Positions 9,571 through 39,200 of a DNA stretch of 64,000 bases are shown in pieces. The first letter of the stretch is position 1; each line of letters opens with the position of its first letter. The position numbers and the translations under genes were made by a program. The stretch covers positions 173-64,172 of the forward strand of contig JBILVQ010000001.1 in assembly GCA_044370375.1 (NCBI GenBank), read 5' to 3'. The notes beneath the pieces are model-generated. The model saw only the letters and a list, made by a program, of their open reading frames with translations, was not told the DNA's origin and did no database searches. The DNA comes from Bacteroidia bacterium. Lineage in GTDB: Bacteria > Bacteroidota > Bacteroidia > UBA4408.

Positions 9571-9723
9571 TTGATGTTTTCCTGTTTTTAGGAACGCAAA
9601 GTAACAAAAAATGATTGTAAAGGGGGCATTAATTTTGATAGTTTTTATCAAAAAATGTTTGTTTTTCGAAGAATTATTGCAACTTTGCGGGTCAACCCAA
9701 AAATGGGTGACTACCCATTGGTT

Positions 9724-9731
9724 TAGTTTTG
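9724..9731 (+). promoter_or_regulatory. Candidate -7 box (TAGTTTTG) for the giant adhesin gene. An inverted repeat ATGGGT-N4-ACCCAT lies nearby (about 9694-9709).
   Basis: A TAnnTTTG match lies about 26 nt upstream of the ATG at 9757. An adjacent 6-bp inverted repeat with a 4-nt spacer sits in the divergent Usp/adhesin intergenic region. These are motif matches only. Confidence 0.25.
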
Positions 9732-9756
9732 TACAATTAATCGAGGATTTCAGCAT

Positions 9757-12700
9757 ATGATGAACTTTAACCTGAAGTGTATTGCCAAAGAAAAATTCAT
9801 TCTCAAGAGTGTAATTTCTTGTTTTTTATGGGCATTTGCTTTTTCTGCCTTGCTTCTCAGCCCCAGAACTGCCGGTGCTACCGTCTTTAACGTGAATACG
9901 CTCGTGGATGGCGGTCCGGGCTCTCTAAGAGCCGCAATCCTGGCAGCCAACAATGATGGAACTGCTACTGCAGGTGCTCCGCATATTATCAATTTAACCG
10001 GACTCTCAGGAACCTTAACGCTTGATTCTGCCCTCAGAAATGTTGAAAACCACATCACTTTTAATGGTCCGTCCAACAACTCCTTAACCATCCGCAGAAA
10101 CCCCACAGCTCCCACTTTTTCTGTTTTCTTAATTAAACCCTTTTCTACACCAAACATCGTTGTTCGGATGAATAATTTAGTGGTTACAGAGGGTAATAGT
10201 TTAACCGGTGGAGGAATTTATGTGGAAGCTTCTACCCTTGTGATTAACCAGTGTCGTATTTTCCGAAACTTCTCAAGCAATGGTCTAGGCGGTGGTATTT
10301 GTATCAATGATGCGGAGGTGGAAATAAACAATTCCACCATTGATAATAACCGGAATTTGGCCGGTTTGGGTGGTGGTATTTACATGAATTTGGGTAGCCT
10401 CCTAATGAATAATTGTACGGTTTTCGGTAATCGTGCCTCCATTGGAGGAGGTATTGATAAGGCCGACATTGGGGCCATGGTCATCAATAACTGTACTTTT
10501 ACCAGAGACACTGCCGATGATATTGGTGGCGGTATTTACAATGATTTTGGTGTATTTGAATTGAACAACTCTATTGTTACTGGAAACCTTGGTGTTAATG
10601 GAGGAAATGATATTGTTCAGGGTGTTTTCTCCACTTTTGGTCATAATCTTATTGGGAATATCAATGGGGTGGTTTTCTTTGGTAACCAAACCGGAAACAC
10701 AGGTGCTGGCGTTAATGCTTCTTTTGTTTTAAATCAAACATTGGCCAACAATTCAGGTCCAACTCCAACCTGTGTGCTGGTGCCTTGCAGTCCGGCTATC
10801 GATAATGGAACCAGCAACGCTTATCCCTTACCCATCTCCTCTGCCACCGACCAAAGAGGAATCGTGCGGAGTAATTTCGGTACTGCTTTTGATATTGGCG
10901 CTGTAGAGTATAGCGGGCCTATTTCTTCCGATGTTTCAAGGTGTGGTCCGGGGCAGGTTACAATTACTGCATTTGCCGGCACCGCCTACCTTTGGTATGA
11001 TGCTCCAGTGGGTGGAAATTTGTTAGGTTTTGGCGCTAACTTTAACGTTAGTATTAACACTAGCACTACCATTTATTTGGCCGATTTTTTCAATGGTTGT
11101 GAATCAACAACAAGAATTCCTGTAAATGTAACCATCCTTCCCCTTGCTCCTCAACCTACAATTACACCCCTTGGGTCAACCACGTTTTGTGATGGAGGTT
11201 CTTTGGTGCTCGAGTCTAGTACTGATCCAACTTATGTGAGTTTTGATTGGGAGCCAGGAACAGGAACAGGACAAACCTTTCAGGTTACATCGGCCGGATC
11301 CTATACGGTTACCGTTGTAGATCTCAATGGATGTTCTGCAACCTCTAATCCGGTGCTTGTTACCGTTAATCCAAACCCTGTCCCGGTAATTACCTCAAGT
11401 GGTTCACTGAATTTGTGCAGTGGAACCACCGTTACTCTTGTTTCAAGCATCCCTTCAGGGAATTTGTGGAATACAGGTGAAACCAATGATAGTTTGGTAG
11501 TGAATACCGCAGGATCCTATTTTACCGTTGTAACCGATGCAAACGGATGCTCCGGCCAATCAAATACTATTGTTATTAATGCCGTTCCCGTTCCTCAAAC
11601 TCCTGTTATTTCTGCAAGCGGCCCTACAACTTTTTGTACCGGTGGTTCCGTTACACTTACTTCTAGCAGTGCAACCGGTAACCTTTGGGGACCCAATGGC
11701 GAAACAACACAAAGTATTGTTGTTAATACTTCCGGAACTTATTTTCTTACCGTTTCTGATGGCAATAATTGTGTTTCCGACACAGCTTTTGTTACCGTGG
11801 TGGTGAATAGTTTGCCCCAAGTTACGGTTAGTCCTGCCGGACCTGTAAACATTTGTCAGGGATCCTCTACGGTATTAACTTCCTCACAGCCTACTGGTAA
11901 TGTATGGTCTGATAATTCAACCGGAAACACGCTGACCGTGAGTGCTGCCGGAAGTTATTTTGTAACTTTTACTGACGGAAATGGTTGTTCTGCTGTTTCC
12001 AATACTGTCGTAGTTAATACAACAAACGCACCTACACCTCCGGTTATAACGGCCAATGGCCCGCTAACTTTCTGCGATGGCAATTCGGTAGTTCTTACAT
12101 CAAATATTGCTGCCAATATCTTGTGGTCAACGGGTGAAACAACGCAGTCCATCACCGTTGTCAATTCAGGCTCTTATACTGTTTCGGTAACCGTTAACGG
12201 GTGTTCCTCCACTTCACAACCTGTAAACGTTACAGTTACCCCGGGCCCTGTTGCAGCAGTAATTACTCCTTCAGGACCAATAACCTTTTGTGCAGGGTCT
12301 TCTGTAACACTTACTTCAGATATTGCCTCAGGCATTTTATGGTCAACCGGTGAAAGTACACAGTCAATTGTGGTTAATGCCTCCGGTTCCTATACCGTTT
12401 CAGTTACCGATGGCTCTGGTTGTACAACCGAATCTTTGCCGGTGGTAGTAACGGTTAATCCTTTGCCTACAACACCGGTCATTACTCCGTCAGGTCCTAC
12501 AACTTTCTGTTTTGGTCAAAGTGTAACGCTCACTTCTAGTTCGGCAACAGGTAATGTTTGGTCAACCGGCGAAACCACGCAATCTATTGTGGTAAGTAGT
12601 ACGCAGGTTATTACGCTAACCGTAACAGATAATAATCTTTGTTCTTCTACTTCCTTGCCTCTATCCATAACGGTCAACCCCCTTCCTCAAACACCAACCA

Positions 12701-15700
12701 TTACCCCCGGAGGTAATCCAACCTTTTGCTTAGGTGAATCAATTACCCTTACGTCAAGTCCTGCGGTTTCCTATTCATGGAGTCCTTCGGTTGGAACTTC
12801 TCAAACCATTACTGTCATTGCCAGTGGTTCCTATACGGTTACCATTACAGATATTAATGGCTGTACTGCTACTTCTAACCCATTTGCAGTTAATGTAAAC
12901 CAACCAACCCCTGTCAGCATTACAGGAGATAATACATTTTGTCAAGGTTCAACGGCTAATCTTTCAGCCAGTGCAGGTGTTTCCTGGCTGTGGTCAACAG
13001 GACAAACAACTCAAAATATCAGCGTTGCTCAAAGTGGTTCCTACACAGTGGAGATAATTGATGCGAACGGTTGTGCCTCTGTTTCTGCTCCCTTTGTTGT
13101 AACTGAATTATTGACGCCTAATCCTGTAGTAAACCCTGCAGGACCTATTCAGGCTTGTTCCAATGAGACGGTGGTTCTTACTTCCTCATTTGGTTCAGGG
13201 AATGTTTGGAGCAATGGTGAAACCACACAATCCATCAATGTTACTAGCTCTGGTAGTTATTTTACCGTAATCACCGGTAACAATGGTTGCATTGGCACCT
13301 CCAATATTGTAGAGGTAATTATTCTTCCGGCACCAACAGCCCCTGTGGTTACATCTTCAGGCTCAACCAATATTTGCACAGGATCATCTGTAACCCTTAC
13401 CTCAGATGTTGCAACAAATATTATTTGGAATACTGGTGAAACTACTCCTTCCATCAATGTTTCCCTTTCAGGTTCATATTTTGTTACTGTTACCGCTCCA
13501 AATGGATGTTCTTCTTCTTCTATTCCTGTAACCGTAGTGGTTGATCTTCCTCCTGCGGCACCCTTATTGCCAAGTCCAGTTTCACAATGTGGCGGCATCG
13601 TCACCCTTGATGCTGGTGCAGTAAATGCCGGTACCAGCTATTTGTGGAGTACTGGGGAAACAACCCAAACCATTGCGGTGAATGTTTCCGGAAATTATTT
13701 CGTTACCCTCACCAACAATTGTGGATCGGTAAATAGTAATACGGCTGTTGTTACTATTTTGCCTGTGCCGGTTGCTCCAATAATAACAGCGAATGGACCT
13801 ACCACTTTTTGTCAGGGTGGATCTGTTGATCTAACTTCTGATGTAGCTAGCAATATTCTGTGGAACAACGGTTCCAATGCTCAAACCATTTCGGTGAACC
13901 AAACAGGAAATTATTTTGTGGTGTTTACCGACGCGAATGGTTGCACTGCTGCCTCTAATGGTATTGATGTTATTGTTGATATTCCATTGCTTGCACCTGT
14001 TTTACCTACCAATATTAGCCAGTGTGGCGGTGGTTTGGTTTTAGATGCCGGTTTCTTTGGTGGTAGCACCAGCTATTTGTGGAGTACAGGAGAAACAACG
14101 CAGACCATTACCGTTAATGCTACAGGAACCTATTCTGTTGAAGTAACCAATGCTTGTGGTACAGTGACTTCAAACCTTGCCGATATCACCATTATTCCTT
14201 TGCCTCCTGCACCCGTAATTACTGCCAACGGGCCAACCACCTTTTGTCAGGGAGGTAGTGTTACACTTACCAGCAGTGCCCTAAGCAATAATCTTTGGAG
14301 CAATGGCGAAACAACACAATCCATTCTTGTTAATCAATCAGGAAATTATTCTGTAACCATTGCCGGTGTTAATGGTTGCTCCAGCAGTTCAAACACCATT
14401 ACCGTGATTGTCGACATCCCTCCGGTTGCTAGCAATTTGGGAGGTCCTTATGTACAATGCGGAGGTACAGTAACCCTTGATGCCGGAAATTCAGGTGGTT
14501 CAACCACCTTTTTATGGTCAAACGGTGAAACCACTCAAACGATAAATGTTGCCACCTCCGGTAATTATCAGGTAGTAATCACAAATTCTTGTGGATCGGT
14601 TACCAGTACAGTAGCTTTAGTTACCATTGAACCAGTACCTCCGGTTCCATCCATCCTTCCTAACGGCCCTGCTACCTTCTGTCAGGGAGGTCAGGTAACC
14701 TTAACCGCCTCTGTTGATCCATCTGTTGTTTCTTTGTTATGGAGTACAAGTGAAACTTCTAACTCCATTTCAGTAGCCACAACAGGCTCCTATACTGTTA
14801 CAGCATTTTCTGCCAATGGCTGCAGTGCAACCTCTTTACCAACAATTGTAACGGTTGATTTTCCTCCTGTTGCTCCAAATTTGGGTGGACCTTATAACCA
14901 ATGTGGAGGAACCGTGTTTTTGGAAGCCAATTTCTTTGGAGGATCCACCACCTATTTATGGAGCAATGGTGAAACAACACAAAGTATACTTGCAGCTACT
15001 TCCGGAAATTATTCGGTTACCATTACCAATTCATGTGGTTCTGTTACCAGTGCTCCTGCAACAGTAATCATTAATCCTTTGCCAACAACCCCATTAATCT
15101 CTGCCTCCGGGCCAACCAATTTTTGTCAAGGAGGCTCTGTTGATTTATCTGTGATTTTTGATCCATCGGTGACGTCTGTTTTATGGAGCACAGGTGAAAC
15201 CACAAACACTATTACGGTTTCAACCGGTGGAAGCTACTTTGTTACCGTTTTTGGTGCCAATAATTGCTCAAGCACCTCGGCACCAATAAATGTTAATGTT
15301 AACACGCTTCCAGTAAGCCCTGTATTGCCTGCAAGTATAAGCCAATGCGGTGGGTCGGTTACCCTCGATGCCGGTCCTGTGCAGCCCGGTAGCGTTTATG
15401 CATGGTCTAATGGCGAATCTACCCAAACAATTACGGTAACCGCCTCAGGAAACTATTTTGTTACCATCATTAATGCTTGTGGAACTGCTCTAAGTAATGT
15501 TTCACAGGTTGAAATTCTACAAGCACCTCCTGCACCTTTAGTAACAGCTTCTGGTCCTACCACTTTCTGTCAAGGAGCTTCTGTTGATTTGACTGCGAGC
15601 TTTTCGAATAACATCATTTGGAATACAGGAGAAACCACCCAAACAATTTCTGTAAGTCAATCAGGAAATTATTTTGTGGTTTTCACTGCTGCGAATGGTT

Positions 15701-18700
15701 GCACTTCATCTTCAATACCGGTTACTGTGATTGTTGATTTACCTCCGGTTGCACCCGTTTTACCACCAAGTATCACTCAATGCGGTGGTTCTGTTACGCT
15801 TGATGCCGGTTCTTTGGGAGGAAGTACTTCTTATTTATGGAGTAATGGGGCTACCACTTCTTCTATTACTGTTACCGTAAGTGGTAGTTATTCTGTTTTG
15901 GTTAGTAATTCATGCGGAACAGTTCTTTCAAATGTTTCTGTTGTTACGATTGAACCATTACCTCCGGCACCGGTTGTTACAGCCGGCGGACCAACAACCT
16001 TTTGCCAGGGAGGATCGGTAACCTTGAACAGTGATGTTTCTACCGGTATTGTATGGAGTAATGGTTCAACCGACCCTTCCATTGTTGTGTCGCAATCAGG
16101 CAACTATTTCGTAAGTGTAATTTCTGCAAATGGTTGTTCAAACTCTTCTAATATTGTTACCGTAATTGTTGATGTTCCGCCAACCGCACCCAATTTAGGC
16201 GGACCTTATGTTCAGTGCGGAGGACAGCTTACACTTTCGGCCGGTATACTGGGTGGAAGTACTACCTATTTATGGTCTAATGGTGAAACTACCCCTTCTA
16301 TTTCTGTAAACCAAAGCGGAAATTACAGTGTGGTGGTTACCAATTCTTGTGGAAGTGTAACAAGTACAACAGCAAATGTTACCATTAACCCCTTGCCAAC
16401 AACTCCAACCATTCAGGCCAACGGACCTATTTCATTTTGTGAGGGAAGCTCGGTTGATCTAACAGCGATTGTTGACAATACAGTGCTGGGATTGACTTGG
16501 AATACGGGAGAAACTACCAACACCATAACCGTTGATACATCAGGAGCCTATTTTGTAACTGTTTTTGGTGCCAACAATTGCAGCGCATCATCACTTCCGG
16601 TTACGGTTTCTGTTGATACGCTACCTACAGCTCCTGATTTAGGTGGACCCATCACCCAATGTGGTGGTACGGTAACCCTTGATGCAGGTTTCTTTGGAGG
16701 ATCTACGAATTATTTGTGGAGCAATGGTGAAACAACGCAAACAATTGTTGTAACCAGCTCTGGTTTATACTCCGTTGCCATCAGCAATAGTTGTGGTTCG
16801 GTCATTAGCAATCCTGTTGTAATTAATATTGAAACGCCTCCTGCTACACCTGTAATAGTGCCGAGCGGACCGCTTGATATTTGTTTAGGTTCTTCGGTTG
16901 ATTTAACCATCAATCCCGACCCAACAGTGGTTGCGGTATTGTGGAGCACAGGTGAAACCACCAACACCATCACCGTAAGTTCTGCTCAAGCAATATTTGT
17001 GACCGTAACCGATGCGAACGGTTGCTCAAGTATTTCTTTAACTGTCAATGTTAATGTGGATAATCCTCCGGTGGCCGTTGTTTTGCCGGATACCGTTGAT
17101 CAATGCGGTGGAACAGTAACCCTGGATGCAGGCTTGATTCCTTCCGGCTCAACCTACTTATGGAGCACCGGTGAAACAACCCAAACCATTGTGGTTGCAA
17201 ATAGTGGGGTTTTTAATGTTTCAGTTATTAATTCTTGTGGAACAGCCCTTAGTAATGATGTAGTAGTAAATTTGTTAGCTGCACCACCAATTCCAACCAT
17301 TACAGCATCTGGTCCTACAACCTTTTGTGTAGGTGATTCTGTGGGATTAACCGTGAGTAACGATCCTTTGGTAACTTCAATTCTTTGGAGTACCGGAGAA
17401 ACTACGCCTACCATTTTTGCTTCCACTCCCAATGCTTTAACCGTAACGGTTTCTTACGCCAACGGATGCAGCAGTTCTTCTTTACCAACCAGCATTGTGG
17501 TCCAAAACCCGCCGGTAGCGGCAGTTCTGGGTGGGCCATTTACTCAATGTGGAGGCACCTTAACACTCGATGCAGGTGTTATTCCTCCAGGAAGTGTTTA
17601 TGCTTGGAGCAATTCTGAAACAACGCAAACCATTACCGTATCGCAATCAGGAAATTATTTTGTTACCATTTCTAATTCCTGTGGTTCGATAACGAGTGAC
17701 ACAGCTGACGTAATCATTAATCAATTACCCAACACGCCTTTAATTACAAGCAGCGGTCCAACTACTTTCTGTATTGGAGACTCGGTGGTTTTGACCAGTA
17801 GTAATCCAAATAATAACCTTTGGTCGAATGGTCTAACAACCCAAAGTATTACGGTAGATACGGCCGGAACCTTCACTGTTTCTGTGGTTTCTGCCCCTGG
17901 ATGTTCAGCAACCTCCAATCCCATTACCATCGTGGTTCAAAATCCACTGGTGGCAGTTAATTTAGGTGGAGATGTTAATGAATGTGGCAGCAATGTAGTA
18001 TTGAATGCCGGCAATCCCGGATCAACATACACATGGACCGACCTTACAGGAAATAACATTTTAAGTCCGACCCAATCAGTAACCCTCGTTAATAGCGGCT
18101 TTGTTTTTGTTGTGGTAGAAAACGCTTGTAATAGTGTAACTTCCGATACCATTACAGTAACCATCAATGCATCCCCTGCCACTCCGGTAATTAATGTAAC
18201 CGGTTCGCTTACTTTCTGTGAAGGCGATTCTGTTTTGTTGGTTGCTTCTGGAGGCTCTTCTGTTGATTTAATAAACAACGGTGACTTTTCTTCCGGTGCC
18301 AATGGTTTCGTGTCTGACTACAATTTTTCTAACAACCTTATACCAGAGGCCACTTATAATGTGGGTCCGGATGCATCGGTTTTCCACCCCTCCTTTAATG
18401 GGTCAGGAAACAATGGAGGAAATTTTCTTGTAGTTAATGGCTCTTCCACACCGGGACAATCGGTATGGTCGCAAACCGTGAGTGTGCAACCAGGTGCATC
18501 TTATGATATTGGTCTTTTCCTCTCTTCTATGGTGGCCGGAAATCCTGGCGAGATTCAATTGAGAGTAGACGGAATAGACGTAGGTGCGGTGATGAACTGC
18601 CCTGGATCTATCAACACATGGGTTCCCTTTACACAAACGTGGACTGCAGGAGTTTCGCCTTTTGCCAATTTATCATTGCATAGTATGAGTTCAACTTCAG

Positions 18701-20964
18701 GTGGAAATGATTTTGGAGTTGACGATATCACCATGAATTGTACCAATTGTTCCTCTGTTGCCAACTATGTTTGGAGCAATGGTGCAACAGGTGATTCATT
18801 GGTTGTTGATAGTTCAGGCACTTATACAGTTTCCATTGTCAATGGCTTGAACTGTTCTGCAACTTCACAACCCGTTACCGTGATTGTGAATTTGTTGCCA
18901 CAAATTCCTGCATTTGCCGATACTACTCAATGTGGAGGTAGCATCACTTTGGATGCCGGAAATCCAGGTGCTACTTATCTTTGGTCGAATGGTCAAACTA
19001 CACAAACCATTGTGGTTTCATCAACTTCCGCCAATGTTTTTGTAGCCATTACCAACTCCTGCGGTACCGTTTCCTCTGATACGGTAGATGTAACCATTAA
19101 CGCTATTCCGGTGTTTGACCTTGGTGGTCCATACGATATTTGTAATGGTGGCTCGGTTACGCTTGATCCGGGAATTGCTGGTTTAACGTATGATTGGAGT
19201 ACTTCAGAAACCACACAAAGCATCTCTGTTAGCACAGCAGGTAATGTGATTCTGACTGTTACAAATCCTTTGACCGGATGTAACTTTACCGATACCGCGG
19301 TTGTTAACGTTAACTTCCCTCCGGTTGTAAATTTAGGACCAGACATTGTACAGTGTGGAGGAACGGTAATTTTAGATGCACAGAACCCGGGCTCAACTTA
19401 TTTGTGGTCAAGTGGCGAAACAACACAAACCCTTTCCTTGACAGGTACTCAGGTAACCACTGTTTCGGTTACTGTTACCAATACATGCGGAACTACTGTT
19501 AGTTTGCCAATTACGGTAGATATTCGCCCTGCACCAAGTCCTGCCTTTATTGTGGCCGGTGGTCCAACCACTCTTTGTGAAGGAGATTCTGTAGAATTAT
19601 TCGCCAGCCCCGGAACATCCTATATATGGGCACCGGGTGGTGAAACAACCAATTCCATCACGGTTGGTGTTTCGGGCACTTATGGAGTAACGGTTATTGA
19701 TGGAAATGGTTGTCCGTCCATCGCACCTGCTGTAGTGGTGGATGTATTGCCATTGCCTGGTGTACCAGCTATTATTACTGCAAACGGACCAACGACCTTT
19801 TGCCTTGGCGGTTCCGTTACTTTGAGTTCAGCTAGCTTAACAGGAAATACCTGGTTGCCATCCGGTAATACGAATAATGCCATAACCGTATTCAATGGCG
19901 GCCCTGTAGTATTAGTTGTTACTGCACCAAATGGATGTTCTTCGGTTTCTGATACGGTGGATGTAATTGTAAATTTCCCACCTCCAGCCTTTGTTGTTGT
20001 TAATGGAAATCCTAATCTGTGTTTAGGGGATTCATTGGTGTTAACAGCAAACAATGGTCAAGGCTTTACCTACTTATGGTCACCCGGTGGACAAACAAGC
20101 CCGTCCATTTCGGTTGCTGCGGCTGGAGACTACACTGTAACAGTAACTGATACGAATAATTGTTCTTCTACCTCCATTGCAACCAATGTGGTTTCGATAA
20201 CTCCACCTCCTATTCCGGTAATTAGTTCCTCAGGGGCTTTGGCTTGCTTTACAGGAAGTGTAACACTTTCTGCAAGTGGTCAGGGCGACTTTGTTTGGTC
20301 TAACGGTCTTGTTGGGTCAGTGGTAGAGGTAAATCAACCGGGAGATTATTTTGTGACGGTAACCAACACATTCTCTTGTTCATCGGTATCAGATACCATA
20401 ACCCTAGTTCCTTCCAAGGATATGAGTGTTACATTGAGTAGTCCGGTTTATGAAAGCAACCAGAAAAATATTCGTTGTTTCGAAGGATCGGATGGGGTAA
20501 TTGAAGCCAAAGTAGAAGGTGGTTACGAACCATTTACCTACGCTTGGTCTAATGGAGCCACCACAGCCAAAATTGAAGGGGTTAAAGGAGGGAATATTGA
20601 TTACGTGGTAACGGTAACAGATGCCTATGGTTGTACAGCAACCCAAACTATTCAACTTACCACTCCGGAAAATCCTTTGGAACAGACGCCTCAGGGCTTC
20701 TCGCCTGATGGTAATGGAGTTAACGATAAGTTTATCATTCCAGGAATTGAGTCTTATTCAAATGTAAAGATTTGGATTTATAATCGTTGGGGCAATGAAC
20801 TGTATCAGGTAAATGGAACTTACAATACAGAAAATGCTTGGGATGGAACCGGACCCAACGGAAGCCAGTTACCTGATGGAACTTACTTCATGGTACTTGA
20901 AGCAGAATCACCTGAATGTGGCACCATTGCTACACAACGTTACATTGAACTTAGAAGGAAATAA
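9757..20964 (+). CDS. Giant (3735 aa) SprB-like cell-surface adhesin, a T9SS type-B cargo. Its order of parts is signal peptide, parallel beta-helix domain, about 41 Ig-like repeats (one carrying a nested CBM4/9-like domain), a SprB repeat, and a CHU_C/type-B C-terminal domain.
   Basis: The signal peptide is MMNFNLKCIAKEKFILKSVISCFLWAFAFSALLL. Aa ~40-385 carry GGGIY/GGGIC beta-helix repeats ending in DQRGIVR...DIGAVEY. Aa ~385-3560 carry repeats of about 80 aa with two conserved Cys (..GPTTFCQGGSV.LTS...LWSNGETTQSI.V..SGNY.V.....NGCSS.S). The SprB-repeat motif is CFEGSDGVIEAKVEGGYEPFTYAWSNGA. The C-terminus (FSPDGNGVNDKFIIPG...YNRWGNELYQ...DGTYFMV) matches the gliding-motility-associated C-terminal domain / T9SS type-B CTD. 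Confidence 0.85.
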   Translation: MMNFNLKCIAKEKFILKSVISCFLWAFAFSALLLSPRTAGATVFNVNTLVDGGPGSLRAAILAANNDGTATAGAPHIINLTGLSGTLTLDSALRNVENHITFNGPSNNSLTIRRNPTAPTFSVFLIKPFSTPNIVVRMNNLVVTEGNSLTGGGIYVEASTLVINQCRIFRNFSSNGLGGGICINDAEVEINNSTIDNNRNLAGLGGGIYMNLGSLLMNNCTVFGNRASIGGGIDKADIGAMVINNCTFTRDTADDIGGGIYNDFGVFELNNSIVTGNLGVNGGNDIVQGVFSTFGHNLIGNINGVVFFGNQTGNTGAGVNASFVLNQTLANNSGPTPTCVLVPCSPAIDNGTSNAYPLPISSATDQRGIVRSNFGTAFDIGAVEYSGPISSDVSRCGPGQVTITAFAGTAYLWYDAPVGGNLLGFGANFNVSINTSTTIYLADFFNGCESTTRIPVNVTILPLAPQPTITPLGSTTFCDGGSLVLESSTDPTYVSFDWEPGTGTGQTFQVTSAGSYTVTVVDLNGCSATSNPVLVTVNPNPVPVITSSGSLNLCSGTTVTLVSSIPSGNLWNTGETNDSLVVNTAGSYFTVVTDANGCSGQSNTIVINAVPVPQTPVISASGPTTFCTGGSVTLTSSSATGNLWGPNGETTQSIVVNTSGTYFLTVSDGNNCVSDTAFVTVVVNSLPQVTVSPAGPVNICQGSSTVLTSSQPTGNVWSDNSTGNTLTVSAAGSYFVTFTDGNGCSAVSNTVVVNTTNAPTPPVITANGPLTFCDGNSVVLTSNIAANILWSTGETTQSITVVNSGSYTVSVTVNGCSSTSQPVNVTVTPGPVAAVITPSGPITFCAGSSVTLTSDIASGILWSTGESTQSIVVNASGSYTVSVTDGSGCTTESLPVVVTVNPLPTTPVITPSGPTTFCFGQSVTLTSSSATGNVWSTGETTQSIVVSSTQVITLTVTDNNLCSSTSLPLSITVNPLPQTPTITPGGNPTFCLGESITLTSSPAVSYSWSPSVGTSQTITVIASGSYTVTITDINGCTATSNPFAVNVNQPTPVSITGDNTFCQGSTANLSASAGVSWLWSTGQTTQNISVAQSGSYTVEIIDANGCASVSAPFVVTELLTPNPVVNPAGPIQACSNETVVLTSSFGSGNVWSNGETTQSINVTSSGSYFTVITGNNGCIGTSNIVEVIILPAPTAPVVTSSGSTNICTGSSVTLTSDVATNIIWNTGETTPSINVSLSGSYFVTVTAPNGCSSSSIPVTVVVDLPPAAPLLPSPVSQCGGIVTLDAGAVNAGTSYLWSTGETTQTIAVNVSGNYFVTLTNNCGSVNSNTAVVTILPVPVAPIITANGPTTFCQGGSVDLTSDVASNILWNNGSNAQTISVNQTGNYFVVFTDANGCTAASNGIDVIVDIPLLAPVLPTNISQCGGGLVLDAGFFGGSTSYLWSTGETTQTITVNATGTYSVEVTNACGTVTSNLADITIIPLPPAPVITANGPTTFCQGGSVTLTSSALSNNLWSNGETTQSILVNQSGNYSVTIAGVNGCSSSSNTITVIVDIPPVASNLGGPYVQCGGTVTLDAGNSGGSTTFLWSNGETTQTINVATSGNYQVVITNSCGSVTSTVALVTIEPVPPVPSILPNGPATFCQGGQVTLTASVDPSVVSLLWSTSETSNSISVATTGSYTVTAFSANGCSATSLPTIVTVDFPPVAPNLGGPYNQCGGTVFLEANFFGGSTTYLWSNGETTQSILAATSGNYSVTITNSCGSVTSAPATVIINPLPTTPLISASGPTNFCQGGSVDLSVIFDPSVTSVLWSTGETTNTITVSTGGSYFVTVFGANNCSSTSAPINVNVNTLPVSPVLPASISQCGGSVTLDAGPVQPGSVYAWSNGESTQTITVTASGNYFVTIINACGTALSNVSQVEILQAPPAPLVTASGPTTFCQGASVDLTASFSNNIIWNTGETTQTISVSQSGNYFVVFTAANGCTSSSIPVTVIVDLPPVAPVLPPSITQCGGSVTLDAGSLGGSTSYLWSNGATTSSITVTVSGSYSVLVSNSCGTVLSNVSVVTIEPLPPAPVVTAGGPTTFCQGGSVTLNSDVSTGIVWSNGSTDPSIVVSQSGNYFVSVISANGCSNSSNIVTVIVDVPPTAPNLGGPYVQCGGQLTLSAGILGGSTTYLWSNGETTPSISVNQSGNYSVVVTNSCGSVTSTTANVTINPLPTTPTIQANGPISFCEGSSVDLTAIVDNTVLGLTWNTGETTNTITVDTSGAYFVTVFGANNCSASSLPVTVSVDTLPTAPDLGGPITQCGGTVTLDAGFFGGSTNYLWSNGETTQTIVVTSSGLYSVAISNSCGSVISNPVVINIETPPATPVIVPSGPLDICLGSSVDLTINPDPTVVAVLWSTGETTNTITVSSAQAIFVTVTDANGCSSISLTVNVNVDNPPVAVVLPDTVDQCGGTVTLDAGLIPSGSTYLWSTGETTQTIVVANSGVFNVSVINSCGTALSNDVVVNLLAAPPIPTITASGPTTFCVGDSVGLTVSNDPLVTSILWSTGETTPTIFASTPNALTVTVSYANGCSSSSLPTSIVVQNPPVAAVLGGPFTQCGGTLTLDAGVIPPGSVYAWSNSETTQTITVSQSGNYFVTISNSCGSITSDTADVIINQLPNTPLITSSGPTTFCIGDSVVLTSSNPNNNLWSNGLTTQSITVDTAGTFTVSVVSAPGCSATSNPITIVVQNPLVAVNLGGDVNECGSNVVLNAGNPGSTYTWTDLTGNNILSPTQSVTLVNSGFVFVVVENACNSVTSDTITVTINASPATPVINVTGSLTFCEGDSVLLVASGGSSVDLINNGDFSSGANGFVSDYNFSNNLIPEATYNVGPDASVFHPSFNGSGNNGGNFLVVNGSSTPGQSVWSQTVSVQPGASYDIGLFLSSMVAGNPGEIQLRVDGIDVGAVMNCPGSINTWVPFTQTWTAGVSPFANLSLHSMSSTSGGNDFGVDDITMNCTNCSSVANYVWSNGATGDSLVVDSSGTYTVSIVNGLNCSATSQPVTVIVNLLPQIPAFADTTQCGGSITLDAGNPGATYLWSNGQTTQTIVVSSTSANVFVAITNSCGTVSSDTVDVTINAIPVFDLGGPYDICNGGSVTLDPGIAGLTYDWSTSETTQSISVSTAGNVILTVTNPLTGCNFTDTAVVNVNFPPVVNLGPDIVQCGGTVILDAQNPGSTYLWSSGETTQTLSLTGTQVTTVSVTVTNTCGTTVSLPITVDIRPAPSPAFIVAGGPTTLCEGDSVELFASPGTSYIWAPGGETTNSITVGVSGTYGVTVIDGNGCPSIAPAVVVDVLPLPGVPAIITANGPTTFCLGGSVTLSSASLTGNTWLPSGNTNNAITVFNGGPVVLVVTAPNGCSSVSDTVDVIVNFPPPAFVVVNGNPNLCLGDSLVLTANNGQGFTYLWSPGGQTSPSISVAAAGDYTVTVTDTNNCSSTSIATNVVSITPPPIPVISSSGALACFTGSVTLSASGQGDFVWSNGLVGSVVEVNQPGDYFVTVTNTFSCSSVSDTITLVPSKDMSVTLSSPVYESNQKNIRCFEGSDGVIEAKVEGGYEPFTYAWSNGATTAKIEGVKGGNIDYVVTVTDAYGCTATQTIQLTTPENPLEQTPQGFSPDGNGVNDKFIIPGIESYSNVKIWIYNRWGNELYQVNGTYNTENAWDGTGPNGSQLPDGTYFMVLEAESPECGTIATQRYIELRRK
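10909..20440 (+). repeat. In-frame tandem array of about 41 Ig-like repeats of about 80 aa (~240 bp) inside the adhesin gene. In the central roughly 13 pairs, two repeat sub-types alternate as A/B, giving a ~480-bp super-repeat.
   Basis: The protein-level periodicity can be read directly. Type A repeats read GPTTFCQGGSV.LTSD....I.WNTGETT..I.V..SGNYFV.....NGC.SSS. Type B repeats read QCGG.VTLDAG..GGST.YLWSNGETTQTI.V...GNY.V...NSCG.V.S. The DNA copies are diverged, at roughly 65-75% identity by eye, and no exact long DNA repeats were seen. Confidence 0.75.
18262..18750 (+). other. CBM4/9-like (galactose-binding-like jelly-roll) domain nested inside an Ig-like repeat of the adhesin
   Basis: A segment of about 163 aa (VDLINNGDFSSGANGF...SVWSQTVSVQPGASYDIGLF...NDFGVDDITMNC) interrupts a repeat between its first half (TFCEGDSVLLVASGG) and its second half (SSVANYVWSNGATGDSLVV...NCSATS). 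The NGDF...W...G.Y......DD..M/L pattern resembles CBM_4_9. Confidence 0.5.
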
Positions 20965-23982: not shown

Positions 23983-24699
23983 ATGATAAAAAGGAAAGAT
24001 CAAGCACATGTGGATTGTCATCATTGTGACTCAAGATTCAAATCTGTTTTTTGCGACCTCGCCTCTGAGGAATTGGAGGCCTTAAACAACCATAAATCTT
24101 GTTCCCAGATTAAAAAAGGACAGGTGATTTTTAATGAAGGATTTCACCCGCATGGAATTTATTGCGTTAACAGTGGGAAAATCAAGGTTTCTCAAATGGG
24201 CGATGCAGGTCGCGAGCACATTGTACGTCTTGCAAAGGATGGCGATATTTTAGGTTATCGTGCGGTTTTGAGTGGTGATAAATATTCTTGTTCAGCAATT
24301 GCTTTAGATGACTGTAATATTTGTTTTGTGCCCAAGGAAGTATTTTTGGGTATGGTACAAAGAGATGTTTCGCTTTCAATGAGCATGATGCGATTGCTCT
24401 CCGACAACCTAAAGCAAGCCGAAACGAGAATAACCGAAATGGCCCAGAAACCGGTGCGTGAAAGATTGGCTGAATCCATATTGTTCCTGAAAGAAACTTA
24501 TGGCTATGAAACCGGTACCAACATTCTTAATGTAACCATGTCGCGGGAGGAGCTTGCCAACATGACAGGAACGGCAACCGAAACCGCCATACGATTACTT
24601 TCGGAGTTAAAATCCGATGGAATTATTGAGCTAACAGGAAAGAAAATTGGCATATTAGACCATTCTAAACTGGTTAAAACCGCCAACTTGTTTGATTAG
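23983..24699 (+). CDS. Crp/Fnr-family transcriptional regulator with an N-terminal Cys cluster (FNR-like)
   Basis: A cNMP-binding-like beta-roll is present in the middle. The C-terminal HTH is REELANMTGTATETAIRLLSELKSDGII. The N-terminus carries Cys at positions 12, 15, 24 and 40 (VDCHHCDSRFKSVFC...HKSC), reminiscent of an FNR Fe-S ligand set. Confidence 0.8.
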   Translation: MIKRKDQAHVDCHHCDSRFKSVFCDLASEELEALNNHKSCSQIKKGQVIFNEGFHPHGIYCVNSGKIKVSQMGDAGREHIVRLAKDGDILGYRAVLSGDKYSCSAIALDDCNICFVPKEVFLGMVQRDVSLSMSMMRLLSDNLKQAETRITEMAQKPVRERLAESILFLKETYGYETGTNILNVTMSREELANMTGTATETAIRLLSELKSDGIIELTGKKIGILDHSKLVKTANLFD

Positions 24700-24794
24700 C
24701 ACTGTTTAACATGATAAAAATCATGTTTTCTATTGACCCTTATCATTCTAATCATTTATAATTGAAGCTAAGTTTGCTGAGATTAATTCAGTAA

Positions 24795-25355
24795 ATGCCT
24801 ACCGATTATTTGTTTCATACCACCCAATTAAAACCTGATGGATTAACCCTGTATCAGGCCGAACGCCATCATGCAGAAACCCGTGTAGTGTTAAACCTAT
24901 TGGGAAAAACCATGGAGCGCTTGGTTACAACTGAGAATTTGCCCGTCCTTTGGCCTGAATTATATGATCGATTTTTAATACTGGCCGATACCATTGAAAA
25001 CAACCAAAGAAAGGAGGAAACTATTTTCTTTCCCTTTGTGGCGAAAATGCTTTCTATTCTTCAAGGCAATAAATCAGTTGATTTTCCGCTGCAAACAATG
25101 GTTAAAAAACCCATTGATCTAATGAGAAAGGAACATGAAAGGGTTAGAAAAATTATGGATGAAATAAGAGACCTTACAGATAATTATTCTTTGAAATCAG
25201 TCAGTTCTTTCGAAGGGAAACTATGTCTTTCAGAATTATTCGTCCTTCATCAAAACCTCGAAAAGCATTTTTACCTTGAAGAAAACATTCTGTTTGAACA
25301 AGTTTTTTTTCTCGAAAATAAATTAAACGAAGCTAATCCGGGTTTTTTTCGATAA
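24795..25355 (+). CDS. Hemerythrin-like (HHE cation-binding) domain protein
   Basis: H/E spacing typical of hemerythrin-like domains is seen in MRKEHERVRKIMDEIRDL and HQNLEKHFYLEENILFEQV (H....E.H...EE..LF), plus an N-terminal ERHHAE. This is a motif-level call only. Confidence 0.45.
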   Translation: MPTDYLFHTTQLKPDGLTLYQAERHHAETRVVLNLLGKTMERLVTTENLPVLWPELYDRFLILADTIENNQRKEETIFFPFVAKMLSILQGNKSVDFPLQTMVKKPIDLMRKEHERVRKIMDEIRDLTDNYSLKSVSSFEGKLCLSELFVLHQNLEKHFYLEENILFEQVFFLENKLNEANPGFFR

Positions 25356-25370
25356 TATTGTTAAGCCCAA

Positions 25371-26204
25371 ATGCAAATCAACATGAAAAAATTTTTAGTC
25401 CCAACCGATTTTTCCCACGCTGCCGGAACCTCAGTAGATTACGCTGCAGCTATGGCCCAGTTTATGGGAGCTGAAATCCTATTGTTTCATGCCTTTCATA
25501 TTCCTATTCCTTCTACAGAAGCGCCTGTCGTTTTAATTTCTGAAGAAGATTTAATGAATGAAAATTTAACAACGCTGAAAAAATTTGCCCAAACCCTGAC
25601 AGATAAATTTCCGGGTTTAACGGTCAATTGCCTAGTTAATTCAGGTTTTGCAGCCGAAGAAATTCCTAAAATTGCCATGAGTCAAAAAGCAGACTTAATT
25701 GTAATGGGAGTAGGAGGATCAGGAATGGTAGATGAATATCTTTTTGGAAGCACTACCGTTGGCGTTATTCGTCATACCAAAATTCCGGTTTTGGTTATTC
25801 CAAAGAATCATATTTTTTCTCCTCCCGCTGGAATTGTTTTTTCTTGCGATTATACGGAGTTGCGTCAACTAAGCACCGCTGACCTGATCAAAAACATAGT
25901 CAAAACATTCAATAGTCATTTATTTGTGTTGAGTGTAGAAAGAGAGGGTGACCGTGTTTCTATTGAGAAAGCTATCTCAGGAGTTCACATTGAAGGTGCA
26001 TTTAGCGAAATAAAACATTCACTTCATTTTCCTTATGGTGATGATGTAGTAAGTGGGATTAATGAGTTTGCAGATCAACATAAAGCCGGTTGGGTCATTA
26101 TGATACCACATGAACATGGATTTCTGGATCGCTTGTTGAACCGAAGTCTTACCCGAAAAATGATTTTCCACACCCATACGCCTTTGTTTGTAATTCACGA
26201 TTAA
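25371..26204 (+). CDS. Universal stress protein, tandem UspA domains
   Basis: Features include MKKFLVPTDFSHAAGTSVDYAA, LIVMGVGGSGMVDEYLFGSTT and a second domain. It is a paralogue of 8737..9570. Confidence 0.75.
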   Translation: MQINMKKFLVPTDFSHAAGTSVDYAAAMAQFMGAEILLFHAFHIPIPSTEAPVVLISEEDLMNENLTTLKKFAQTLTDKFPGLTVNCLVNSGFAAEEIPKIAMSQKADLIVMGVGGSGMVDEYLFGSTTVGVIRHTKIPVLVIPKNHIFSPPAGIVFSCDYTELRQLSTADLIKNIVKTFNSHLFVLSVEREGDRVSIEKAISGVHIEGAFSEIKHSLHFPYGDDVVSGINEFADQHKAGWVIMIPHEHGFLDRLLNRSLTRKMIFHTHTPLFVIHD

Positions 26205-26213
26205 TTCAATCCT

Positions 26214-26624
26214 ATGAAACTTGACATCAACTACCAGACTTCTTTGAATGAAATTCAAAATGAGTTTTCTGCCAGGTTTCCTAATCTCCAGTTGCGCTTT
26301 TTTTTACTCAATCATCCCGATGGCTCTAACCCTGCCAAAGAAGAGCTTTCACCACTATTGAAATTAGAGGAGGTGCGAAAAGTACAAGGCAATGGCTGGG
26401 TTACTTTAGAAAAAGACCAAACTGTGGCCAAGTTGGAAGCAGATTTTAGAGTTCATTTTGGCCTTAATGCACAAGTCTTTAGAAGAGCAGGTAAAAACTG
26501 GCTGGAAACCACCAGTACCGATAGTTGGACCCTCGAAAAACAAAATGAATTTGGCGCAGAAAGTCTTTTGACCATTAATGAATCCGACAAACCTTCCGAT
26601 TATAGCCTTCGGGATGAGGATTAA
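26214..26624 (+). CDS. Hypothetical protein (136 aa, acidic C-terminus), probably co-transcribed with the upstream Usp
   Basis: The ORF starts 10 nt after the Usp stop and has no recognisable motifs. Its codon usage is consistent with its neighbours. Confidence 0.4.
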   Translation: MKLDINYQTSLNEIQNEFSARFPNLQLRFFLLNHPDGSNPAKEELSPLLKLEEVRKVQGNGWVTLEKDQTVAKLEADFRVHFGLNAQVFRRAGKNWLETTSTDSWTLEKQNEFGAESLLTINESDKPSDYSLRDED

Positions 26625-36283: not shown

Positions 36284-39200
36284 TTAGGGGATGGGAATTT
36301 GGAAAACGAATTTTGTTCCACTTCCTTCCATCGAATTTATTTGTAATTTACCTTTAATTGCTGTTGTTCTTTCTTTGATATTTCTTAGCCCGTTTCTTTT
36401 GCTTTCTTTTTCCGGATCAAATCCTATTCCATTATCGGAAATGGTTAGCATTAGCCTTTTGTCGTTAATTTCAATGGAAACATCAATGATTTTACACTTG
36501 GAATGTTTACAGGCATTGTTGATTATTTCTTTGAAAATTAGATAAATATTTTTTCTTAGGAGCATGTTGAGTTTGGTGTCCTGAAAGTTTTCAGGGGTTA
36601 CTTTAAAATTTAATTGTATGTTATAATATTCGGTGTTTTCATTCGCCTGCTCCCTCATTCTGACGATCATGTTTTTAAGGCCATCTTCTTTAGGATTTAT
36701 CGCCCATACAATATCATCCATTACGTTTAGCATTTTTTGAGCATTACCACCAATTTGTTCGCTTATTTTCTTTCCTTCGGTTTCTTTGTCATTGAGCGTA
36801 TACTTCAACGTTTCACTTAACAAGGAAATACTGCTTAAGGTGGAACCAACTTCATCATGCAAATCGCGCGAAATGTTATTTCTTAGTCCTTGCAATTCCA
36901 TAATTCTCCTTAACCGGATTCGATAGGTAAGATAGAATACAAAGCCTGTTAGGGAAACTAAAATAAAATAAAACCACCATTGATAATACCAGGGGGCAGA
37001 TACGAAGAAATTAAATTCCCTGATAACACTACTCCATGTTTGTCCATCTAGAGTGTAAGCCAACTCAAAACAAAATTCTCCAGCGGGTAAATCAACATAG
37101 GTTACCGTGTTTTCAAAAGTATAGTTCCAATCCTTTTCCAGTCCGCTTAAACGATATTTGTACTTAACCAACTGTGACTGGTTGAAGGTGAAAGAGCTAA
37201 AGGATATTTGTGTATTGCTTTTTCTAAATCCAAGCTTTAGCTTTGTTTGATATTGGGAAGGAGGGATGGTTTTTTGATTTATGACAAGGTCGGTAATGGC
37301 GGGTGGAGTTAGTTTTACTTTTTGATTGGCTTGTGCAAGATCGAATCCGAAAATCTTTTCGCCATCATGAAAAATTAGTTTGTTTTGTCCTGCAATGTGA
37401 TGAATATTTCCGGTGGTTGTTTTTATTCCATTTCCCGAAAGTCCTTCGAAAAACCTTATTTGCTTGTCGCGTGTGTTGAATTGAATGAGTCCCGAATGGT
37501 ATGTCATCCATAGGGTTGAATCTATTTTTAGGAAGCCATTGATCATTTTGCTGGGTAAACCATTGATCCTTGAATACAGTTTTTTGCGCATGGTTTTTAA
37601 TTCCACTTCATAAAATCCCTCTGAAGAAGTATTGGAATAGAGATGCTTTGAATCATGAATAAATTTACCACCCACATTCGAAGAATCGTAATGTACAACC
37701 CTTGCTGTTTTTTTGTTCACATCCATCCACCCTCGATTGGTAATAAACCTGATTTTTTCATGATCAATATTTATTCCTCCATATACCCCGTAACCCCTGT
37801 TCTCTTTCATCTTTACCGGTGTGTTTACAGCCGTAACTTTTTTATATGGGATGTTTAATTTTAAAATATTTTCCTTGTCCCACCACCATCTCGATAACCA
37901 CACTACGGAATCTCCTTGCTCATCGACTTTCATTACCGGTGATTTTTTGAAATGATCCGTTTTAGTAAATGTTATTTCCTTTTTTTTATTCAAATCAAGA
38001 AAGGAAAATGCCTTTGTTCTCTGAAGGTAAATGCGTTGATAAGAAGAGGAAGAAATATTCCACAATTCGCCTGCTTCCATATTGTAAATTAATGGGAAGG
38101 TGCTACGTACACTCCATGAAGGATCAACAATTAAAAGCGTTTGATTGTCTGCAATAGCTAAATCTCCATTGTTGAGTTTTGTCATGGATGCGATATGGGT
38201 TAAGCCTAATTTTTTTGCATCATTTTCATAAGTATAGGTTGGCTTATTTAGGCTTAATTTTGAAATGCCTTCGCGGTGACCAATCCACAAAACATTGTTG
38301 CGGTCGAGCATCAAGCAATTCAATTCATTCGATTGAATGGAATTTGGATCGCCTGGGCGAATTGTGTAGTGATAATATTGACCCGTTTTTAAGTGATATT
38401 CGTAAAGTCCGGAGGCTGTAGCAATCCACATGCGATTGTCGCCATCTTCTTGAAAGTCGGAGGGTAAGGTTTCGAATTTTTCTCCTTCAAGACCGGTAAA
38501 TTTCATGCTGTCTGATTTCTTTTGGGTTAAATCAATTTTAAAGAAAGCAGGAAACCAATAGTCAATCCATAGATGATTGTTTTGGTCAATTTCTAAATCA
38601 ATGACTGCCTTCCCATCTCTGTTTTTTTGTGCCAGTTCAGCATTGAAAATGAAGTCATATTCACTATAATTTTTGTAAGAAATGAATTTTTTTTCTCCTT
38701 TTTTTAGGATGTTCAAACCACTCAGGGTTCCCAGAAATAAATTCCCGTTTCGATCAATAGCAATACTGCTGGTGAAATCGTTGGATAGCCCCGAGTTTTC
38801 TACCGTGAATTTTTTAATCAGTTTTTGATGCTGAAAAAGAAACAGTCCTGCCCGGGTTGAAACAAGGATGCTGTCTTTACCCCAACCGGCAACGCAGGTA
38901 ATACCCATGGCATCGCCATTGAATTGTGGATGTGTGGTTTGATTGTAGTTTTTTACCTCAAGGGTCTGGGTATTAAATATGGTTAATCCCCCGGTAAAAG
39001 TGCCAATCCAAAGATTTTCCTCTTCATCTTCATAGAGGGTAGAAATTCTACCTGAAGCAATGCTTTGGTTAGGACGCATGGGATCATGTTCAAATTTTTT
39101 GAATTGATGCCCGTCATACCTTAATAAACTTTCATCATTTCCTATCCAGATGAATCCCTGATGGTCTTGCAACAAACAATTCACACCACCGAATTCTAGT

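Follow-up and report, generated by a model that had tools for sequence, protein, structure and literature searches.

A putative Fnr-type low-oxygen or redox stress regulon of Bacteroidota with a dual-box promoter

Hypothesis

The DNA considered here is a stretch of 64,000 nucleotides (nt) from a Bacteroidia bacterium (GenBank assembly GCA_044370375.1, contig JBILVQ010000001.1, positions 173 to 64,172), which we call the window. Between its positions 23983 and 26624, a gene for a regulator of the Crp/Fnr family is followed by three genes in the same direction, for a hemerythrin-like protein, a tandem universal stress protein (Usp) and a protein of 136 amino acids (aa). We consider it probable that these are the regulator and the target unit of a Bacteroidota low-oxygen or redox stress regulon, in which the Fnr-type regulator acts at a promoter with two boxes. 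The gene content and its conservation, a cis-element of fixed geometry, the association of the 136-aa family across species and a fusion of this family to a Usp are directly observed. An original prediction, made from the letters alone, took the region for a stress module responsive to oxygen (O2) or nitric oxide (NO). Its Fnr-like regulator, its co-directional unit and the expected box stand; its set of cluster ligands, the membership of the hemerythrin-like protein in the RIC family, the close relatedness of two Usps and a link to an adhesin gene do not.

If the hypothesis is correct, the following course of events can be suggested, in which cluster binding, the signal, activation rather than repression, the transcription start and all biochemical functions are inferred from sequence. 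With its cluster intact, the regulator would dimerise and bind two wTGAy-N4-rTCAw boxes whose centres are 22 base pairs (bp) apart. The proximal box, at about -41.5, would permit class II contact with RNA polymerase, and one transcript would run over the three genes. The first product would be a RIC-fold hemerythrin-like metalloprotein that probably deals with iron, iron-sulfur damage or O2/NO chemistry, though one of its His ligands is Asn. The small acidic 136-aa protein would act together with the tandem Usp, which has an ATP-binding motif. As the signal, low O2 is favoured over NO.

The four genes are as follows.

23983-24699, plus strand: Crp/Fnr regulator gene, 238 aa
24795-25355, plus strand: hemerythrin-like protein gene, 186 aa
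25371-26204, plus strand: tandem Usp gene, 277 aa
26214-26624, plus strand: gene of the 136-aa protein, which is acidic and belongs to a Bacteroidota family without characterised members

These open reading frames (ORFs) agree exactly with those given earlier, and Pfam upholds the identities assigned to the regulator, the hemerythrin-like protein and the tandem Usp. The three genes 3' of the regulator do form a co-directional unit: in the putative operon, 15 nt separate the hemerythrin stop from the Usp gene and 9 nt the Usp stop from the 136-aa gene. The spacer between fnr and the hemerythrin gene measures 95 nt. The four-gene order, along with the whole neighbourhood described at the end of this article, is kept in the same species and in four further lineages, all uncultured, among which hemerythrin identity falls from 91% to 56%. 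Conservation of the order in five orthologous lineages means that the arrangement is no chance juxtaposition.

A composite promoter between regulator and operon

The promoter element was found by phylogenetic footprinting, with the 95-nt spacer aligned across the five lineages. Three blocks are conserved in it while the surrounding intergenic sequence diverges.

24711-24724, no strand assigned: Box 1 (distal), ATGATAAAAATCAT, read as ATGAT-AAAA-ATCAT; centre 24717.5, predicted position about -63.5
24733-24746, plus strand: Box 2 (proximal), TTGACCCTTATCAT, read as TTGAC-CCTT-ATCAT; centre 24739.5, predicted position about -41.5
24769-24776, plus strand: -7 promoter element TAAGTTTG, of the Bacteroidota consensus TAnnTTTG

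The whole promoter region spans 24711-24776. Box 1 lies inside a perfect palindrome of 18 bp (24709-24726) and is conserved in all five orthologous lineages, a symmetric double substitution being present in one of the compared loci (L017). Box 2 is conserved in the orthologues as well and reads TTGAT-ACTT-ATCAT in two of them (L014, L015), and TAnGTTTG is invariant in the alignment. The centres of the two boxes are 22 bp apart, and that of Box 2 stands 36.5 nt before the G of the -7 TTTG. In TAnnTTTG promoters, transcription usually starts about 5 nt after this G. If this is the case here, the start would be near 24781 and the box centres would be at about -41.5 and -63.5. Such a geometry would be that of a class II Crp/Fnr activator with a fixed second site. 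A TTTG -33 element is absent from its expected place in this promoter, which suggests that the promoter depends on an activator.

A palindrome of the Fnr/Crp type, which had been suggested as a thing to look for 5' of 24795, is then present. A search with the canonical FNR consensus TTGATNNNNATCAA, allowing at most one mismatch, gave chance-level matches and missed both boxes, which depart from it at two outer positions each; a count of the TGAT-N4-ATCA core alone gave no significance. With the refined motif TGAYNNNNATCAT, the only matches in the 64-kilobase (kb) window are these two boxes. Relaxing the motif and asking for only one box at the right distance from a -7 element still leaves 24734 as the sole site in the whole window, and when the same scan tolerates a deviation of 1 nt in either direction there is one extra match (at 46210; 0.36 expected).

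A sigma-70 promoter of the E. coli type was also considered for this region. TTGACC-18-TATAAT at 24733-24762 fits 11 of 12 positions and overlaps Box 2; its TATAAT is not conserved in orthologues, whereas TAnGTTTG is, and we rejected it as probably fortuitous. Elsewhere in the window, a perfect single box, TTGATGCCCGTCAT, is found at 39104-39117, near the 5' end of a minus-strand ORF (36284-39301) and 172 nt 5' of the plus-strand ORF at 39289, without the -7 geometry. The same 13-mer, TGATGCCCGTCAT, is intergenic in Chitinophaga cymbidii (L004:7881-7894), either by coincidence or as a distinct kind of site.

The same promoter in other Bacteroidota

The loci used for comparison were sampled for carrying a gene of the 136-aa family. 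Three distant ones, in which the uncharacterised gene is that of this family, illustrate how the promoter recurs with a different set of genes. Cultivable carriers of the dual box are Chitinophaga cymbidii, C. eiseniae, C. ginsengisegetis and Phaeodactylibacter luteus KCTC 42180.

L006: Usp, Usp and an uncharacterised gene, divergent from ccoI-ccoS-ccoNO; boxes at 77.5 and 55.5 nt from the first ATG, distances equal to those in the window
L004 (Chitinophaga cymbidii): Usp, flavodoxin and an uncharacterised gene; box ATGACCACAGTCAT
L010: CBS protein and an uncharacterised gene; two boxes, 22 bp apart

In the first of these, Box 1 is identical to that of the window, at equal distance from the ATG. 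The dual-box promoter there (L006:1-4256) shares its intergenic region with divergent genes for ccoI/FixI, FixS and ccoNO, and this arrangement ties the element physically and directly to genes of micro-oxic respiration.

Of 17 perfect boxes in 155 kb, 13 fall in these promoters. In the promoter windows of operons from 80 further species, perfect boxes are 12.6 times as frequent as expected (32 observed, 2.5 expected; Poisson p ~3e-24 without correction for phylogeny). The dual-box pattern occurs at 81 plus-strand sites in 595 kb of related loci and at none in 20 shuffles. In 55 of the 80 loci, a dual box stands upstream of the gene of the 136-aa family. Its distance to the family gene varies with the number of genes in between: -40 to -190 for a lone gene, about -900 to -1,100 when one Usp intervenes, and about -1,400 to -1,750 where another gene and a Usp precede. 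The internal geometry is rigid. At 62 dual-box sites the G of TTTG is exactly 36.5 nt from the centre of Box 2, and no other distance was seen more than 5 times.

What genes stand behind such promoters? We tallied the first gene behind 59 oriented composite promoters. Members of the 136-aa family come first 12 times, a count inflated by the way the loci were sampled, followed by DoxX (11), Usp (9), hemerythrin (6), PAS histidine kinase (2) and HSP20 (2). CcoN (COX1) of the cbb3 oxidase, a CcoI-type ATPase, BON, rhodanese and TerB were each found once. This set of genes resembles the low-oxygen regulons of Anr, FixK and DosR, each of which includes Usps. The regulons known as Anr, DosR and Lxa, all of them for low oxygen, have Usps in common (PMC12071387), and in P. 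aeruginosa a hemerythrin is under the control of Anr (bioRxiv 10.1101/802934). To judge by such comparisons, the operon would belong to a regulon of the low-oxygen type.

The sensor next to this promoter can be of another kind. In about 11 lineages the operon is preceded not by a Cys-rich Fnr but by a PAS-HisKA-HATPase kinase and then a hybrid protein of 352 aa with REC, cNMP_binding and HTH_Crp domains. The recognition helix of the hybrid reads ETTIR, and the dual box and the -7 geometry are the same. The pair was seen in L034:224-2621, L039, L046, L082, L087, L091, L045, L028 and L054, 5' of operons that consist of DoxX or hemerythrin, Usp and an uncharacterised gene. In L034 and L039 the dual box precedes the kinase gene itself, which suggests that the kinase is autoregulated. 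That one promoter is found with an exchanged sensor module independently supports the view that it answers to an environmental signal, most plausibly O2 or redox.

The regulator

Pfam finds cNMP_binding (PF00027, 75 bits) and HTH_Crp_2 (PF13545, 59.8 bits) in the regulator, that is, the beta-roll and the Crp-type helix-turn-helix of the FNR fold, and the full-length protein aligns to FNR structures with E ~1e-21. The best of 17 NCBIfam family hits is Fnr (NF008365), matched end to end with 104.5 bits. The nearest solved structure, 2gau, is that of a Crp/Fnr-family regulator; the alignment with it starts at residue 20 of our protein and leaves C12 and C15 uncovered.

Conservation of the cysteines was counted in 121 homologues of 57-100% identity. 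C12, C15, C61 and C114 are kept in all 121, C40 in 119 and C24 in 115, while H14 is kept in 96. The four cysteines on which the original prediction had based an FNR-like cluster, C12, C15, C24 and C40, are present, and their conservation in orthologues, the lack of which was to count against the idea, is as high as these numbers indicate. The idea of a cluster is reasonable. The set of ligands, on the other hand, was wrong as named. Alignment to the crystal structure of A. fischeri (Aliivibrio fischeri) FNR (5cvr) and to E. coli FNR equates C12 with C20, C15 with C23 and C114 with C122, and leaves C40 without an FNR counterpart. The putative ligands would be C12, C15, C24 and C114, the fourth being the central C114 and not C40, and the regulator most likely holds an oxygen-labile iron-sulfur cluster on these four residues. 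C40 and C61, with H14, may make up another redox or metal site, one peculiar to the Fnr-like proteins of Bacteroidota.

FNR binds its TTGAT-N4-ATCAA target with residues E209, S212 and R213 of the recognition helix. In the window regulator this helix reads GTATETAIR, and its core, ETAIR, keeps the Glu and the Arg of the ETISR of FNR. With regard to autoregulation of fnr, the region 5' of 23983 is poorly conserved and contains no box.

The products of the operon

The hemerythrin-like protein is a single domain that matches Pfam Hemerythrin (PF01814) with 40 bits against a cut-off of 25.3 and has a four-helix bundle of the RIC/YtfE type. The earlier assignment to the RIC/DnrN type is right as to the fold and not as to the equivalog. 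The protein covers only positions 68-216 of the RIC model TIGR03652, its C-terminal two thirds, with 63.7 bits against 204.7, which means that the N-terminal domain of RIC is absent; ScdA_N (PF04405) has no match in the 186 aa, and the scores are far below the equivalog cut-offs of YtfE (42 against 254), DnrN (25.5 against 300) and ScdA (23 against 259).

The metal ligands of YtfE are H84, H129, H160 and H204, with E133 and E208 as bridges (PMC9052748). We aligned our protein with YtfE by phmmer, hhalign (93% probability) and MAFFT, the YtfE sequence being checked against PDB entry 5fnn. The positions correspond as follows.

YtfE H84: H26
YtfE H129: N70
YtfE E133: E74
YtfE H160: H114
YtfE H204: H158
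YtfE E208: E162

The complete RIC ligand set is not there, the Asn at the H129 position being invariant in the clade of the window. Loss of the His/Glu ligands, which the original prediction had named as an observation that would refute it, is a fact at this one position, and the other five are kept. Co-regulated hemerythrin-like proteins of other lineages keep His at the position of N70; in a comparison with the hemerythrins of L050, L054, L070 and L081, the change from His to Asn is confined to the clade of the window. A second hemerythrin clade (L050, L070, L081) appears to carry Tyr at the H204 position. Metal-site variation seems to be common among these co-regulated RIC-fold proteins. 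When the hemerythrin alignment was used to scan GTDB genomes, no relatives emerged, the patterns being too clade-specific, and more distant co-regulated hemerythrins were recovered by phmmer within the loci that had been fetched.

The operon Usp matches PF00582 in two stretches with 105.8 bits. Its N-terminal domain only has the ATP-binding motif G-2x-G-9x-G(S/T), as GVGGSGMVDEYLFGS at residue 113. With two PF00582 domains and a nucleotide motif, it is a tandem ATP-binding Usp.

The 136-aa protein had been described as free of recognisable motifs, and indeed no Pfam or NCBIfam model matches it, nor was a significant fold match found that could place it in any curated family. It is acidic, lacks Cys and has the signature AQVFRksGxxWLETTxTDsWTLekQN. 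The family is far from rare. A word-indexed search gave 22 clusters, which made it look so; an exhaustive profile search raised this to 2,007 representatives (50% clustering), of which 1,527 have E <= 1e-10. It is found in genomes of 530 GTDB species, and all of those among the 80 loci listed are Bacteroidota.

In 34-36 of the 80 loci, the gene that directly precedes the family gene is that of a Usp. In a metagenomic protein of 418 aa (P0169), a tandem Usp (residues 1 to about 280) is fused to a domain of the 136-aa family (286-411). In L010, a CBS-pair protein, a small nucleotide-binding module, takes the place of the Usp. On the strength of the operon linkage and the gene fusion, we infer that the 136-aa protein may be a partner or an effector of a nucleotide-binding Usp.

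Alternative explanations

Several observations weigh against the regulon that we propose. The score of the regulator does not reach the NCBIfam Fnr cut-off of 228. C24 sits three residues past the position of C29, which gives CX2CX8C instead of the CX2CX5C of E. coli FNR; C40 and C61 are conserved, the FNR proteins of E. coli and A. fischeri have no equivalent of either, and a different chemistry is possible. Ser212 of FNR is replaced by Ile in the recognition helix. Box 1 forms a weak RNA hairpin (-6.8 kcal/mol), with U's next to it, just past the fnr stop. The dual-box search pattern has no match in 25 of the 80 loci. The related loci share descent, and the enrichment statistics given above overstate their independence. 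Finally, other Crp/Fnr paralogues may bind these boxes, and adjacency alone does not prove a link between regulator and target. Four alternatives can be built on these and other points.

The first is that the operon is a module for NO or nitrosative stress, like those of the DNR, NnrR and HcpR branches, and that the RIC-fold protein is its main effector, repairing NO-damaged iron-sulfur centres or handling nitrite or NO. FNR-type clusters react with NO too, and the first gene of the operon encodes a protein of the RIC/YtfE/ScdA fold. YtfE works in the management of nitrosative stress (PMC9052748). We nevertheless regard this role as unlikely. None of the nitrogen-oxide genes hcp, nor, nir and hmp is among the 59 first genes behind dual boxes, and the set that is found there is typical of low-oxygen regulons. 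The N-terminal Cys motif, invariant in our regulator, is missing from DNR, NnrR and HcpR. The last of these is an Fnr-like NO/nitrite regulator of the Crp/Fnr family known from Bacteroides and Porphyromonas, in the same phylum, with a RIC gene of B. fragilis among its predicted targets (PMC1274295). HcpR2 is characterised by a GTAAC-N4-GTTAC operator, by Pro at the position of Glu181 of CRP and by linkage to hcp (PMC1274295), whereas our regulator keeps the helix Glu, has the Cys motif and is found with TGAy-N4-rTCA boxes; hcp is absent both from the neighbourhood in the window and from the dual-box genes. Moreover, the hemerythrin itself is missing, or swapped for DoxX, in many lineages.

A second possibility is that a different Crp/Fnr paralogue, for instance a REC-Crp hybrid, binds the dual box and that the regulator encoded at 23983 is a mere neighbour controlling other genes. 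The dual box adjoins the hybrid rather than a Cys-rich Fnr in the lineages mentioned above, many loci have no regulator gene within 4 kb, and the two types of regulator share the helix ET[AT]IR, so that either could read the box. We judge this improbable for the window, where the order of fnr, boxes and operon is strict in all five orthologous lineages, the boxes begin 12 nt past the fnr stop and we noticed no further Crp/Fnr gene close to the element; regulators often control adjacent genes.

Rather doubtful, in our opinion, is a third alternative, in which the six conserved cysteines of the regulator would serve to sense redox by thiol-disulfide chemistry, or through some metal that is not an FNR-type [4Fe-4S] cluster. 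In its favour are C40 and C61, whose conservation equals that of the cysteines with FNR equivalents, a spacing of the N-terminal cysteines that is not that of FNR, and the largely kept H14. However, at three of the four FNR ligand positions, the diagnostic central Cys among them, the alignment is exact and the residue invariant, and the content of the regulon fits O2 limitation.

That Box 1 is only the intrinsic terminator of fnr, with an incidental likeness to an Fnr box and no regulatory link, is very unlikely: its 18-bp palindrome does start 10 nt past the fnr stop and fold with a z score of -2.75, UUUU does come after it, and the symmetric substitution in L017 does preserve pairing, but the stem, rich in A/U, contains only 2 G-C pairs and failed a terminator scan, Box 2 cannot form a hairpin and is equally conserved, and the same layout occurs where no gene ends upstream (between the divergent genes of L006 and in many stand-alone loci). 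Box 1 may have a dual role, as terminator and operator.

Relation to known systems

Regulation of the operon by the Fnr-type protein, as proposed, can be compared with several systems. With E. coli FNR and P. aeruginosa Anr it has in common the N-terminal Cys motif and the central Cys (aligned to C20, C23 and C122), the TGA-N6-TCA core of TTGAT-N4-ATCAA and a proximal site predicted at the class II position of about -41.5. Its predicted targets include Usps and a hemerythrin, as does the Anr regulon (PMC12071387; bioRxiv 10.1101/802934). It differs in the CX2CX8C spacing, the extra C40 and C61, the Ile in place of Ser212 and the score below the Fnr cut-off; in the relaxed outer positions of the boxes (wTGAy, not TTGAT) and the Bacteroidota -7/-33 type of promoter; and in having, as a rule, two boxes at a fixed spacing of 22 bp instead of one.

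In the FixL-FixJ-FixK system of rhizobia, an O2-sensing PAS kinase feeds a Crp/Fnr-type activator of cbb3 oxidase genes. The sister lineages with a PAS kinase and a receiver regulator that has a Crp/Fnr DNA-binding module would be alike in this respect, with the same promoters and effectors as the Fnr version. There are differences: receiver and Crp/Fnr modules are fused in one protein of 352 aa instead of being parts of two regulators, and the window itself has the Cys-rich Fnr version.

The DosR regulon of Mycobacterium tuberculosis, which responds to low oxygen and NO, is rich in tandem ATP-binding Usps and includes alpha-crystallin (HSP20) (PMC12071387); Usp and HSP20 are also among the dual-box genes here. 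DosR is a NarL-type response regulator with another DNA motif and in another phylum, and the likeness is functional and not one of homology.

Implications

The core of the hypothesis, an Fnr-type regulator beside a stress operon, is ordinary. What is added is a specific composite promoter common to Bacteroidota, interchangeable sensor modules, and a large family that is placed in a regulon and tied to Usps. A broader proposal, which we put forward only tentatively and would not yet bet on, is a phylum-wide low-oxygen or dormancy regulon of Bacteroidota, with a rigid composite promoter, interchangeable sensors (either the Cys-rich type of Fnr or the pair of PAS kinase and REC-Crp hybrid) and the family of about 130 aa as the obligate partner of tandem Usps. 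In the sampled loci, selected for the presence of the family gene, this gene is the commonest one directly behind the promoter. If the proposal is true, the family would be a handle on the biochemical role of Usps, which has long been unclear.

How genes are regulated in response to oxygen has been worked out well for Proteobacteria, Firmicutes and Actinobacteria. Oxic-anoxic interfaces are a frequent habitat of environmental Bacteroidota such as Saprospiraceae, Chitinophagaceae and Flavobacteriales, and in the literature searched we found no account of such regulation for them. A search for work on a Bacteroidota Fnr regulon or on REC-Crp hybrids likewise found nothing relevant, which, its coverage being incomplete, is weak evidence of novelty. 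The dual-box signature, absent from shuffled sequences, is specific enough for genome-based prediction of the regulon across the phylum. It would also offer a case in which one promoter design is retained while the sensor module changes. A widespread family (530 GTDB species; some 2,000 clusters at the level of 50% identity) gains a physiological context and a predicted tandem-Usp partner, and the 136-aa family, possibly together with the function of Usps, becomes experimentally approachable.

The second Usp and the surroundings of the operon

The original prediction had pointed to a second, closely related tandem Usp and had suggested that an adhesin gene beside it shares control with the stress module. 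The second Usp is encoded at 8737-9570 on the minus strand, with its likely start at 9570 (277 aa) and not at 9756, and it faces away from the adhesin gene. Its identity with the operon Usp is 28% over 185 aa, which is hardly a close relationship, and the G-2x-G-9x-G(S/T) motif was not found in it. Shared control is not supported either: the signature of boxes plus promoter is found in the window only at 24712/24734, and the region between the second Usp and the adhesin gene (9571-9756) contains neither this signature nor any Fnr-type box. We found nothing that would connect this regulator with the adhesin or with the second Usp.

Within the same intergenic region there is an inverted repeat, TTTTGATA-GTTTT-TATCAAAA (9633-9653), with half-sites that resemble those of Fnr. 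It was rejected as an Fnr box, its TTGA-N9-TCAA spacing being wrong for a Crp/Fnr dimer. The second Usp gene is convergent with, and 1 nt apart from, a gene for a HAMP-HisKA-HATPase histidine kinase (7353-8735), upstream of which an ORF of 232 aa (6655-7353) possibly encodes a response regulator. The second Usp may belong to this two-component neighbourhood rather than to the Fnr module.

On the 5' side of the four genes is a unit of the type IX secretion system kind, composed of the adhesin of 3,735 aa followed by PorP/SprF and an OmpA-family protein; on the 3' side of the operon are lysS and a PMT_2 glycosyltransferase. These neighbours point to Bacteroidota. The giant CHU_C/Ig_7 adhesin (9757-20964) has 3,735 aa in the window and in L003, and 3,598 aa in two JGI metagenome contigs with an identical 136-aa protein (compared loci L001, L002, L003), which suggests variation in the number of repeats between strains.

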